Part shown: positions 31,023 to 34,150 of the stretch, piece after piece
Layout of the letters: each line of letters begins with the position of its first letter
Numbering within the stretch: position 1 is the stretch's first letter
From: Bacteroidetes bacterium CG12_big_fil_rev_8_21_14_0_65_60_17
Lineage (GTDB): Bacteria; Bacteroidota; Rhodothermia; Rhodothermales; UBA10348
DNA: 64,000 nucleotides
Assembly: GCA_002787815.1 (NCBI GenBank)
Contig: PCUY01000075.1
Location: forward strand, 11,406 to 75,405
Direction: 5' to 3'
Translations under genes and position numbers: made by a program
Notes under the pieces: model-generated
Seen by the model: the letters and a program-made list of their open reading frames with translations, nothing else
Told to the model about the DNA's origin: nothing
Databases searched by the model: none

Positions 31023-32738
31023 GTGCAGACAAAATACATTTTTGTAACCGGGGGCGTCACGTCGTCCCTGGGCAAAGGCATCATCTGTGCCTCTCTCGGG
31101 CGGCTTCTTGAAGACCGCGGGCTGCGGGTTACCATCCAGAAGTTCGATCCCTACATCAATGTGGATCCGGGTACCATGAATCCGTACGAGCACGGCGAGG
31201 TGTATGTCACGGACGATGGTGCCGAGACTGATCTGGATCTGGGCCATTACGAGCGTTTCCTGGGCGTTCCCACGTCGCAGGCAAACAACGTGACGACCGG
31301 ACGAGTCTACCTGCAGGTCATCAACAAGGAGCGCGCCGGCGCCTACCTGGGCAAGACGGTCCAGGTCGTGCCGCACATCATCGATGAAATAAAGCATTGG
31401 ATGTTGAAGCTCGGTGAGACGGGCGATTATGATGTGATACTCACCGAAATCGGAGGCACCGTCGGCGATATCGAAGGGCAGCCGTACCTCGAGGCCATTC
31501 GCCAGTTGCGCTACGAGCTCGGTGTGAGAAACACGCTCAACATCCACTTGACACTGGTACCCTTCCTCGAGGCAGCCGGCGAGGTCAAAACAAAGCCGAC
31601 ACAGCACTCGGTCAAGACGCTGCTCTCGTTCGGCCTGCAGCCTGACATCCTGGTGTGTCGCACGGACAGGCCACTCGATACGGATGTGCGCCGCAAACTG
31701 GCTCTTTTCTGCAACGTCGACGCGGAGGCTGTCGTCGCGTCCCAGGATGCGGAATCCATCTACGAAGTCCCCCTGCTCATGCGCGAACAGGGTCTTGACA
31801 GCATTACAGCGCGGCTCCTGCGTCTGGATGAGGATTTCAAGGACCGCTTCGCCGATGCGCCGAATATGGAAGACTGGGTGGAGTTCGTTCGCCGCCTCAA
31901 AGAGCCCAGGAAGAAAGTCCGTGTGGCGCTCGTTGGCAAGTACGTGGAGCATCAGGATGCCTACAAGTCCATCAATGAAAGCTTCATTCTGGCCGGTGCC
32001 TGGATGGGTGTGCAGGTCGAAGTCCGGGAAATCCTCTCGGACCTGGTGACGCCCGAAAATGTGGATGAGTTGCTGTCGGACGTTGCAGGCGTCCTTGTGG
32101 CACCGGGTTTCGGCGAGCGGGGCATTGACGGTAAGATTGAAGCTGTCCGGTATGCACGTGAGAACGACATCCCGTTTTTCGGTATCTGCCTGGGCATGCA
32201 ATGTGCCGTCATCGAATTTGCGCGCCACGTATGCGGATGGGACGATGCGCACTCAACGGAATTCGATCCGGATACGGAGCACCCGGTCATTGATCTCATG
32301 GAAGATCAGAAGGCCATTGCCGAGAAGGGAGGGACCATGCGCCTCGGTGCCTATCGGTGCCGACTTTCCCCGGGCACGCGCGCCAGGGACATATACGGCG
32401 AGGACGAGATCAGCGAGCGGCACCGGCACCGGTATGAATTGAACAATGTCCTGCGCTACAAGCTGGTGGAGCACGGTCTGAGACTGAGCGGAATCAATCC
32501 GACCCGTGACCTGGTGGAAATCGTTGAGCTACCTGATCACCGGTGGTTCATGGGTGTGCAGTTCCATCCTGAATACCGGACAACCGTAGGGAGGCCGCAT
32601 CCGCTTTTCGAGTCGTTTCTGAAGGCCACGTTGGACCGGGCTGAGGAAACCGGGTCCACGTCGAAGCCCAAACCACCAAAGCGCCAGAAAAAGATTCACC
32701 TTGCCACGTCGCGACTGCTCAAAGGCGACGCCGAATAA
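31023..32738 (+). CDS. pyrG: CTP synthase
   Basis: TGGVTSSLGKG, KFDPYINVDPGTM, KTKPTQHSV, GICLGMQ, ERHRHRYE, QFHPE. Confidence 0.97.
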   Translation: MQTKYIFVTGGVTSSLGKGIICASLGRLLEDRGLRVTIQKFDPYINVDPGTMNPYEHGEVYVTDDGAETDLDLGHYERFLGVPTSQANNVTTGRVYLQVINKERAGAYLGKTVQVVPHIIDEIKHWMLKLGETGDYDVILTEIGGTVGDIEGQPYLEAIRQLRYELGVRNTLNIHLTLVPFLEAAGEVKTKPTQHSVKTLLSFGLQPDILVCRTDRPLDTDVRRKLALFCNVDAEAVVASQDAESIYEVPLLMREQGLDSITARLLRLDEDFKDRFADAPNMEDWVEFVRRLKEPRKKVRVALVGKYVEHQDAYKSINESFILAGAWMGVQVEVREILSDLVTPENVDELLSDVAGVLVAPGFGERGIDGKIEAVRYARENDIPFFGICLGMQCAVIEFARHVCGWDDAHSTEFDPDTEHPVIDLMEDQKAIAEKGGTMRLGAYRCRLSPGTRARDIYGEDEISERHRHRYELNNVLRYKLVEHGLRLSGINPTRDLVEIVELPDHRWFMGVQFHPEYRTTVGRPHPLFESFLKATLDRAEETGSTSKPKPPKRQKKIHLATSRLLKGDAE

Positions 32739-33402
32739 CGAGGCCCGCGCGACCCACGATGGGCCATGAGGGTTCCGGGCCCGGGCCTGGCGTCGGGCCC
32801 GGGCGTACCTTCAAGTCCGTGCGTGGTGTAGTTGGATCGGCAGCCGTGAGTATCAGGCGGTCTCCGTAGCGTTGCAGTCGACGTACGGTGAACTGCCTGT
32901 TCAGCGCATGGATAATGAGATTCCCGCCCGGAATATCGCCGGATGACTCGGGCCAGCCCACGATGATGTCGTGCTTCTGTATGCCGTCGCGCGCCATGCT
33001 GTCGTCGGGCATGGTGATGTACGCCAACGTTTTGCCCTCGGCCTCGGCCGGCAGCATCTGCCTGTCTACCCAATATCCTTCCCGGGGATCGGGCCAGCCC
33101 GCACCGCGCGGAGCGGCAGCTTCCGGTATGAAGATGAGCCGGTTGGCAGGCGCGTCCCCACGGCTCCCCACCACGCGGATACCCCTCGCCGTTCCTTCTT
33201 CCACGTCTACATGTCCCTTGCGCTCCAGCTGAGCAACGAGCTTGACGGCACTTGTAACGCTGCGTACATCGAGTCTGTTTGCCAACTCCCTGTATGTGGG
33301 AGAGCGCCCATCCTCTGCAATGTGTGTTTCAATGGCGCGAAGGGCATCCCGCTGCCGCGTACTGAGAGCGCTTCTGTCGGGTGCAACATGATCTCCAAAC
33401 AT
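32719..33402 (-). CDS. lexA: LexA-family repressor (winged HTH + S24 domain) with the catalytic Lys replaced by Arg
   Basis: LSTRQ...SPTYRELA..L..RS......LERKG....GTARGIR; A101-G102-W-P; DS135M; TVR174R where LexA normally has TVKR. Confidence 0.8.
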   Translation of the reverse strand: MFGDHVAPDRSALSTRQRDALRAIETHIAEDGRSPTYRELANRLDVRSVTSAVKLVAQLERKGHVDVEEGTARGIRVVGSRGDAPANRLIFIPEAAAPRGAGWPDPREGYWVDRQMLPAEAEGKTLAYITMPDDSMARDGIQKHDIIVGWPESSGDIPGGNLIIHALNRQFTVRRLQRYGDRLILTAADPTTPRTDLKVRPGPTPGPGPEPSWPIVGRAGLVIRRRL

Positions 33403-33403
33403 G

Positions 33404-33419
33404 GTGTAAATATATACAC
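33404..33419. promoter_or_regulatory. Candidate LexA-type operator 1, GTGTA-N6-TACAC
   Basis: gtgtaaatatatacac, 1 bp from the lexA start codon. Confidence 0.7.
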
Positions 33420-33434
33420 TTTTTATTGTGACAG

Positions 33435-33450
33435 GTGTACTTATATACAC
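33435..33450. promoter_or_regulatory. Candidate LexA-type operator 2, GTGTA-N6-TACAC
   Basis: gtgtacttatatacac, 31 bp from operator 1. Confidence 0.7.
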
Positions 33451-33459
33451 TAATTTACG

Positions 33460-33492
33460 TTATGCACACGTTATAAACTCGTTATCCACACG
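33460..33492 (+). promoter_or_regulatory. Array of three DnaA-box-like 9-mers with 11-bp period
   Basis: TTATGCACA-cg, TTATAAACT-cg, TTATCCACA-cg; the first and third match TTATNCACA. Confidence 0.7.
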
Positions 33493-33553
33493 GTAAAATG
33501 TCAAAAAGCGACCTCATCCGGTTGAAAACGAGCTTTTCCGTGACAGAGTGGCC

Positions 33554-33581
33554 TTGACTTTCGGACTTAAAGATGTACATT
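33554..33581 (+). promoter_or_regulatory. Sigma70-type promoter of the mraZ/dcw operon
   Basis: TTGACT-N16-TACATT. Confidence 0.6.
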
Positions 33582-33590
33582 AGCTGTATG

Positions 33591-33610
33591 GTGGGGAAAT
33601 GTGGGGAATA
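33591..33610 (+). promoter_or_regulatory. MraZ-binding direct repeats
   Basis: GTGGGGAAAT GTGGGGAATA, 10-bp period just downstream of the -10, like known GTGG/TGGG MraZ boxes. Confidence 0.7.
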
Positions 33611-33700
33611 CTCCCATGTCTGGTTCACATGCGACCAGACGCACATGCACGCCCACCCACACCCACGTACACATGCCAAACGGCATTTCGATTGCACACC

Positions 33701-34150
33701 ATGGCTCGTTTCAAGGGACAGGCTGAATACTCCGTCGACGCCAAAGGACGGGTTGCCATTCCGGCCAAGATGCGGGCCGCACTGAGTCCGGATGCGCAGC
33801 AGACATTTACGCTGACGAAAGGCTTTGAGCAGTGCATCTACGTGTACCCTCTCGACGAGTGGCGCATCCAGGAGGACAAGCTGGCCAGACTCAACAGTTA
33901 CGATCGGGAGTCGCGGCTGCTCGTGCGCATGATGCTCATGTGGGCCGAGGAAATTTCGCTCGATGGTCAGGGACGCGTATCCGTTCCCCGGACGCTCTCC
34001 GATTACGCAGGACTGAAGGACCGCGCGCTGATCATTGGTGCCATTGACCGAATTGAAATCTGGGATCCGGTCGTCTTCGAGGACTACCTCGCCGGGGCGT
34101 CCTCGAATCCTGAGGAGTTGGCTGAGCGCGTCATGGGGTCGGGACCATGA
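33701..34150 (+). CDS. mraZ: Transcriptional regulator MraZ
   Basis: FKGQAEYSVDAKGRV.IP and second repeat LDGQGRV.VP; IGAIDRIEIW. Confidence 0.95.
   Translation: MARFKGQAEYSVDAKGRVAIPAKMRAALSPDAQQTFTLTKGFEQCIYVYPLDEWRIQEDKLARLNSYDRESRLLVRMMLMWAEEISLDGQGRVSVPRTLSDYAGLKDRALIIGAIDRIEIWDPVVFEDYLAGASSNPEELAERVMGSGP

Follow-up and report, generated by a model that had tools for sequence, protein, structure and literature searches.

The stretch of contig PCUY01000075.1 analysed here (64,000 nucleotides, referred to as the window) comes from a bacterium of the order Rhodothermales and carries mraZ, the first gene of the cluster for division and cell-wall genes (dcw), which is followed by rsmH, ftsL, ftsI and murE. 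Divergent to mraZ lies a gene for a LexA-like protein, and the two genes are separated by a short AT-rich spacer. On its other side the LexA-like gene converges with pyrG, the 3′ ends of the two overlapping by 20 bp (32719-32738), and no terminator-like site was found between them. The spacer holds, in order from the LexA-like gene, two palindromes, three DnaA-box-like 9-mers, a sigma-70-like promoter and a pair of GTGGGG repeats (Table 1). We read it as a conserved bidirectional control region with three putative operator systems, those of the LexA-family paralog, of DnaA and of MraZ, and give this explanation as a whole a probability of roughly 60%. The observations behind it are the sequences of the elements, their conservation, their uniqueness in the genome, the covariation of recognition helix and operator, and the loss of catalytic residues from the paralog.

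An initial annotation of this DNA had listed the same motifs and had proposed synteny and motif conservation as checks. All of the motifs are present where it placed them, they are non-random, and each class recurs in orthologous spacers. The arrangement of pyrG and the lexA-like gene with a divergent mraZ holds throughout the order and beyond; within the order it was seen in seventeen relatives. Operators, promoter and MraZ repeats are kept in most of the 66-81 orthologous spacers and a perfect DnaA box in 25 of 81, where these and all further counts over relatives are not phylogenetically independent. The genus of the window is represented by four genomes, its own (G000) and those designated G001, G002 and G003.

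Table 1. Features of the pyrG to mraZ interval, in window coordinates
Feature	Position	Strand	Description
pyrG	31023-32738	+	Convergent neighbour of the LexA-like gene
LexA-family paralog gene	32719-33402	−	227 aa; LexA-type winged helix and degenerate S24 domain
Second GTGGGG-N4-GTGGGG	33156-33171	−	Inside the paralog open reading frame, sense strand, linker codons V-G-S-R-G-D
Intergenic spacer, paralog/mraZ	33403-33700		298 bp; 44.6% G+C against 59.7% for the genome
Operator O1 (putative)	33404-33419		GTGTAAATATATACAC; GTGTA-N6-TACAC, GGTG-N10-CAC; 1 bp from the paralog ATG
Operator O2 (putative)	33435-33450		GTGTACTTATATACAC; GTGTA-N6-TACAC; 31 bp (three helical turns) from O1
DnaA-box-like 9-mer	33460-33468	+	TTATGCACA; 1 mismatch
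DnaA-box-like 9-mer	33471-33479	+	TTATAAACT; 3 mismatches
DnaA box	33482-33490	+	TTATCCACA; perfect consensus
mraZ/dcw promoter (predicted)	33554-33581	+	TTGACT-N16-TACATT; transcription start inferred near 33588-33590
MraZ operator (putative)	33591-33616	+	GTGGGGAAAT GTGGGGAA, 10-bp period, then inverted TCCCA
mraZ	33701-34150	+	First gene of the dcw cluster; Pfam MraZ 104 bits; TIGR00242 128 bits, above cut-off

Putative palindromic operators and the linkage of the paralog to mraZ

The pattern shared by the two palindromes, GTGTA-N6-TACAC, occurs twice in the window, where 0.01 matches would be expected, and not one of 100 shuffled sequences gave as many. The arms of O1 are invariant in all four genomes of the genus, whereas O2 is just half conserved in G001-G003. 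Most of the 66 orthologous spacers contain two 18-bp palindromes, whose centres lie 31-33 bp apart in 29 cases, 41-43 bp in 7 and 54-58 bp in 6, corresponding to 3, 4 and 5 helical turns. The operator sequence changes together with the recognition helix of the adjacent paralog. Proteins with the helix STNG.. are found with GGTGA-N8-TCACC, those with SVT[SA]AV or STTSAV, which include the genus of the window and an unrelated family, with GGTGTA-N6-TACACC, and those with STNAVA with CTGAACA-N4-TGTTCAG. Matches to the operator pattern are confined to the mraZ spacer in three relatives that include complete genomes (Roseithermus, with a complete genome, G026 and G032), and no operators were found at DNA-repair genes. 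The covariation of helix and operator, together with the lack of sites elsewhere in complete genomes, indicates that the palindromes are private to the paralog, and on this sequence evidence O1 and O2 are its own putative operators.

Across the genome of the window, a global regulon built on the palindrome was considered and rejected: six of the eight GTGTA-N6-TACAC sites lie in coding sequence or outside the system, and five, in open reading frames and mostly encoding V-H-x-Y-T, look like chance. The only other intergenic operator pair precedes the gene of a 514-aa lipoprotein (C11:31092-31140; L118, L119), for which there was no Pfam match. This pair reads GGTGTATATATGTGCAC ... GTGTATATTTATACAC, with the two sites about 32 bp apart, and is conserved in the sister genomes G002 and G003.

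The operators always hug the 5′ end of the paralog gene and stand about 90-125 bp from the mraZ −35 element, never overlapping the mraZ promoter, so that direct occlusion of this promoter is unlikely. In other families a TATCTT/TATATT element follows directly after the proximal site, an arrangement that fits repression by an operator lying over a promoter. A separate motif, ATATGTG / ATGTGCACAT, was seen in 22-23 of the 66 Rhodothermales spacers (for example L009, L010, L034, L133, L136, L146 and L152), usually in the interval between the operators and the paralog ATG. It is absent from the window and may be the site of another factor or a leader element.

Paralog loci were found, in a scan of named genomes, in the Rhodothermales (Roseithermus, Rhodothermus, Salinibacter, Salinivenus and Rubricoccaceae) and in one Kryptonia genome, and at almost every one of them mraZ lies head-to-head at a distance of about 230-550 bp. 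A sample of 300 genomes of the phylum added further classes. At the inspected loci of this sample, proteins of the DDGM/VRR type always adjoin mraZ and proteins of the VAAG/GDSM/KR type never do, with no exception.

Operators that hug the paralog gene and never reach into the mraZ promoter could also mean that the paralog only autoregulates, or acts elsewhere by protein contacts, that its position beside mraZ is historical, and that two independent systems merely share a spacer. The many losses of the paralog without loss of the mraZ elements, and the second target in the genus of the window, which is unrelated to division, fit such an arrangement as well. However, the head-to-head linkage lasts through several classes, at protein identities of about 25-30% and over three changes of operator sequence, and sites confined to one divergent spacer leave little else to regulate. 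MraZ-type repeats inside the paralog gene of this genus, described below, argue in addition for cross-talk between the two genes. We consider this reading rather unlikely.

The mraZ promoter, the MraZ repeats and the DnaA-box-like array

The predicted mraZ promoter is the sole sigma-70-like match in the 1.2 kb between 32600 and 33800, and its form TTGAC...TAC[CA]TT has been retained by most of the 66 orthologous spacers as well as by genomes without the paralog. In relatives the promoter often reads TACCTTTG, which we take to resemble the Bacteroidetes −7 element TAnnTTTG. The repeat pair GTGGGGAAATGTGGGG (GTGGGG-N4-GTGGGG; 33591-33606) starts 10 bp after the −10 hexamer. Of the 66 orthologous spacers, 65 carry a GTGGGG pair that begins at this same distance from the −10 hexamer, and GTGGGG-N4-GTGGGG occurs only twice in the 2.9-Mb genome, both copies being in this locus. 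The element thus has at least two GTGG-core direct repeats with a 10-bp period at the mraZ promoter, as expected of an MraZ operator. The repeats are followed by an inverted TCCCA (33612-33616), and nearly all spacers show GTGGGGA-N3-5-TCCCA; the inverted unit may be a third, inverted MraZ half-site or part of a small 5′ hairpin. For the 5′ leader of mraZ, a riboswitch or other structured RNA was rejected, with a fold z-score of −1.1 and no Rfam match.

G002 and G003 retain the second copy of the repeat pair, within the paralog gene, as DNA sequence by means of rare NGT-GGG codons, and the non-homologous linker of G001 carries a triple repeat. This suggests that MraZ may also act on the paralog gene in the genus of the window.

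The three DnaA-box-like 9-mers (33460-33490) are co-oriented and separated by 2-bp spacers, giving an 11-bp period, and the array stands 64 bp 5′ of the mraZ −35 element. Over the window as a whole, boxes with one mismatch show no enrichment, with 9 found against 6.4 expected. In the whole 2.9-Mb genome there are only 14 perfect boxes, and when boxes with one mismatch or none are counted, the spacer is its second-densest cluster. The third box of the array is nearly invariant in the genus and the middle unit is identical in three genomes. The 25 spacers with a perfect TTATCCACA comprise 20 of the 66 with the paralog and 5 of the 15 without it. For permuted 9-mers matched in composition, the corresponding means are 0.12 and 0.05 regions, with maxima of 3 and 2. 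In spacers without the paralog, a strong box is followed by the weaker co-oriented CTGTCCACA and TTCTCCACA in steps of about 11 or 22 bp, 5′ of the mraZ promoter. Because the boxes are retained where the paralog is missing, the array can be assigned to the control of mraZ. The distance from box to MraZ operator is exactly 72 bp in seven spacers, many of them from one clade.

In those relatives without the paralog, the boxes pass straight into phased CCCCAC units (GTGGGG on the other strand) with a period of about 10-11 bp, and the DnaA box read in reverse complement, TGTGGATAA, shares all but two of nine positions with the local MraZ repeat TGTGGGGAA. The 9-mers might then be auxiliary MraZ repeats, inverted and degenerate (GTGGAT, GTGCAT), that extend an MraZ complex 5′ of the promoter. 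The variants counted upstream of the main MraZ operator point the other way. The full GTGGATAA is found in 27 regions, compared to 8 for GTGGGGAA, 7 for GTGGGTAA and 4 for GTGGAGAA, and 25 of the 27 occurrences are the complete 9-mer TGTGGATAA. This enrichment over other GTGG variants favours DnaA over mimicry of an MraZ repeat. Moreover, the three repeats of the window share GTTAT rather than a GTGG core, and the middle unit (AGTTTATAA in reverse complement) lacks GTGG yet is identical in three genomes. A reading of the array as MraZ repeats is thus quite improbable, and DnaA probably provides an input to the spacer.

Two further observations concern this region and its putative ligand. A block GAAAACGAGCTTTTCCGTGAC, with arms GAAAA/TTTTC (33524-33544), lies 10-30 bp 5′ of the mraZ −35 element; all four members of the genus keep it, and no known motif was assigned to it. 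The genome of the window also contains two separate matches to the DnaA ATPase family (C52:17248 and C51:111), one of which is at a contig end.

Loss of the self-cleavage residues, and the damage and origin readings

The paralog matches PF01726 (LexA_DNA_bind; 49.9 bits) over residues 11-74, and its alignment to the DNA-binding domain of E. coli LexA covers residues 2-71 of the latter. An S24 domain is also present (PF00717, Peptidase_S24; 31.8 bits). The score against TIGR00498 is 73.1 bits, below the equivalog cut-off of 110.95. Alignment to E. coli LexA structures shows that Ser119 is kept (DDSM), that Lys156 is replaced by Arg (TVRRL for TVKRL) and that the Ala84-Gly85 cleavage site is missing, the aligned stretch being E-A-A-A-P (AAAP); relatives have A-S, S-S or similar pairs. 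Among 81 distinct mraZ-linked proteins, all 80 that could be scored have Arg in the Lys156 column, and the Ser119 column is Gly in 74, Ala in 3 and Ser in 3, the three with Ser being those of the window's genus. An Arg fixed at the position of Lys156 points to a maintained non-catalytic function, not decay.

A canonical LexA of 216 aa is encoded elsewhere in the genome (C6:23427-24020; L098 1441-2091, minus strand), directly downstream of recO. It keeps all three features, with ITAGG for the Ala-Gly site, GNSM for the Ser and SLKR for the Lys. ATATGTGTGTAACATATAAGCACATA precedes its gene, and a UmuD-like protein is encoded in the genome as well. In a maximum-likelihood tree, one branch (support 100/99; present in 100% of bootstrap trees) separates the mraZ-linked proteins from the canonical LexA proteins. 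The paralog of the window falls on the mraZ-linked side and also has the head-to-head mraZ, the Arg at Lys156 and the paired palindromic operators that mark this clade. Judged from tree and residues, the paralogs are an old monophyletic family beside mraZ that has lost its self-cleavage chemistry, and the LexA-like protein of the window is by prediction a catalytically disabled paralog, not a DNA-damage sensor. The literature searched contained no paper linking mraZ to a LexA-like protein, and this mraZ-linked family of dead LexA regulators appears to be undescribed so far.

The initial annotation had proposed that a LexA-like repressor, DnaA and MraZ may converge on the dcw promoter region as a replication/damage checkpoint, a model in which the divergent gene would encode the organism's SOS repressor, cleaved with RecA stimulation after DNA damage. 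The LexA domain architecture of the paralog, the nucleophilic Ser kept in the genus, and palindromes built like the E. coli SOS box (geometry xTGT-N8-ACAx, centre AT-rich) are all compatible with this proposal, and in gut Firmicutes LexA sites upstream of an mraZ homolog have been validated by electrophoretic mobility shift assay (PMC3998124). However, the Lys is Arg in every member, the Ala-Gly site is absent and the Ser is lost in 77 of 80, while a complete canonical LexA lies on another contig. The operators, for their part, are absent from repair genes and locus-unique in complete relatives. A canonical SOS box is likewise missing from the spacer, which has no match within three mismatches to ATRTGT-N-ACAYAT, a tentative and weakly defined LexA motif derived from regions upstream of canonical lexA genes in relatives. 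RecA-stimulated self-cleavage of the canonical LexA kind is not supported by the residues of the paralog, and the SOS repressor was not borne out; a checkpoint of this kind is highly improbable. Since the paralog is by prediction catalytically disabled and is linked to mraZ, its connection to division probably reflects new biology rather than an SOS checkpoint. From the proposed convergence of three regulators, the shared spacer survives as plausible, whereas the DNA-damage arm is unsupported and action on one promoter is hypothetical.

That the spacer is a chromosomal replication origin (oriC), or part of one, has a negligible likelihood and was rejected: it is AT-rich, has one of the 14 perfect boxes and is the second-densest box cluster of the assembly, but the 64-kb window shows a flat, positive GC skew from end to end without a switch, three boxes, of which two are weak, are too few, complete relatives have the locus at unrelated coordinates, and many orthologous spacers are without any box.

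Proposed control of the locus and comparison with known systems

In the mechanism proposed for the three-operator control region, the binding of each protein, the sign of each effect and both transcription starts are predictions. Two paralog dimers would bind O1 and O2 cooperatively and on the same helical face, at a distance of 3, 4 or 5 turns depending on the spacer, and binding over its own start and promoter would repress the paralog gene. As O1 and O2 are the only genomic sites, or nearly so, the output of the paralog must fall on the two divergent transcription units, and it would be a dedicated modulator of the mraZ/dcw locus rather than a DNA-damage switch. We infer its action on dcw transcription, and the direction of that action, from linkage and site uniqueness. 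At the array, the strong DnaA box would nucleate DnaA-ATP onto the two weaker co-oriented boxes at 11-bp spacing. Its position between the promoters could couple the status of the replication initiator to dcw transcription, and probably also to transcription of the paralog. MraZ would bind the GTGGGG repeats, which span roughly +1 to +25 of the mraZ promoter, leading to autorepression, and in the genus of the window it would also bind the repeat pair within the paralog gene.

A more far-reaching version is possible, and we offer it tentatively. The paralog may be an ancient dedicated division regulator of the Rhodothermales, Kryptonia and allied classes, whose S24-like domain, with its invariant Arg, would have been re-used to sense some signal other than activated RecA, for instance a ligand, a protease or a partner protein. 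With DnaA and MraZ as its companions, it might then form a three-input switch for dcw, with MraZ feeding back through the intragenic repeats in this genus.

Several observations weigh against the control region as we describe it. The catalytic Ser is retained in the genus of the window, and E. coli LexA with the K156R substitution keeps some cleavage at high pH, so that residual cleavage by the paralog is possible. The paralog promoter in the genus was not located, since neither a promoter scan nor manual reading gave a convincing −35/−10 pair, and O1 abuts the ATG. A leaderless start from the TATATT inside O1 was rejected because it does not hold consistently in all four genomes. With about 100 bp between the operators and the mraZ −35 element, synteny and site uniqueness make up the whole argument for an effect on dcw. 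In 15 genomes of the same family the paralog is absent and pyrG runs straight into the mraZ spacer with the mraZ control elements remaining; such repeated loss indicates that the paralog is dispensable. About two thirds of the spacers, including those of Salinibacter, Salinivenus and Rhodothermus, have no DnaA box, and the DnaA input would therefore be lineage-specific. The likeness of TGTGGATAA to the local MraZ repeat, at 7 of 9 positions, also counts here. Finally, complete relatives show no oriC-like cluster of perfect boxes, their few boxes being scattered, and the consensus used may not be the clade's own.

Transcription-level coupling of replication and division is largely unknown outside model phyla, and the purpose of MraZ, among the most conserved of bacterial regulators, is still debated. 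The locus offers a regulator family with a clean signature, in which catalytic residues are lost, Lys to Arg is fixed, operators are private and DnaA boxes recur. Cultured relatives, among them Rhodothermus marinus, Salinibacter ruber and Roseithermus, open it to direct study. The family shows how a self-cleaving SOS repressor could be converted into a stable local regulator. It also calls for caution in annotation, as such paralogs would be labelled "LexA".

The MraZ repeats can be compared to those of E. coli P_mra and of B. subtilis, where MraZ binds three GTGG[A/T]G repeats with 4-nt spacers (bioRxiv 10.1101/2022.02.09.479790). Those of the window are likewise GTGG-core direct repeats with a 10-bp period at the mraZ promoter, and nearly unique in the genome. 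They differ in consisting of two direct repeats and an inverted TCCCA instead of three direct repeats, and in the second repeat pair that lies inside the neighbouring regulator gene in this genus.

A precedent for DnaA input to the mra operon, on which the initial annotation had drawn, comes from B. subtilis, whose mraZ(yllB)-ftsL operon is controlled by DnaA during replication stress (Goranov et al. 2005, related in PMC8203912 and bioRxiv 10.1101/2022.02.09.479790). As far as those accounts describe it, the system likewise has boxes 5′ of the mra promoter and forms a RecA-independent link between replication and division, which at our locus is suggested by conservation alone. Here the boxes form a co-oriented array of 9+2 bp that also stands before a divergent regulator gene, and they occur in about a third of lineages. 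The low-affinity DnaA sites of E. coli oriC are reportedly arranged, in the work of Rozgaja, Leonard and Grimwade, at 2-bp spacing beside a strong R box. The array of the window resembles them in joining a strong 9-mer to weaker co-oriented 9-mers through 2-bp spacers. Unlike oriC, the spacer shows no GC-skew switch and has three boxes only, and it is not an origin.

For the paralog, the closest parallel in lost chemistry is the non-cleavable LexA of Synechocystis sp. PCC 6803, in which Ala-Gly has become Gly-Gly and Ser119 has become Asp (PMC3091678). Both are LexA-family repressors that have lost self-cleavage residues and appear to be re-used outside the SOS response. In Synechocystis, however, this is the sole LexA and has a broad regulon, whereas the mraZ-linked protein coexists as a paralog with a canonical LexA, with one or two putative target loci and a fixed position beside mraZ in several classes. 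The lexA gene of E. coli is autoregulated through two SOS boxes (CTGT-N8-ACAG). The operators described here are likewise two 16-bp palindromes of the form xTGT-N8-ACAx with an AT-rich centre before the regulator's own gene. Their outer bases are G and C instead of C and G, their spacing is 31 bp, and they come without repair-gene sites and without cleavage chemistry. Finally, in the gut Firmicutes with validated LexA sites upstream of mraZ homologs (PMC3998124), a LexA-family protein is also placed upstream of mraZ. There it is the canonical SOS LexA acting on a Cheo box, whereas in the Rhodothermales and their allies the position would be held by a separate, catalytically dead paralog.

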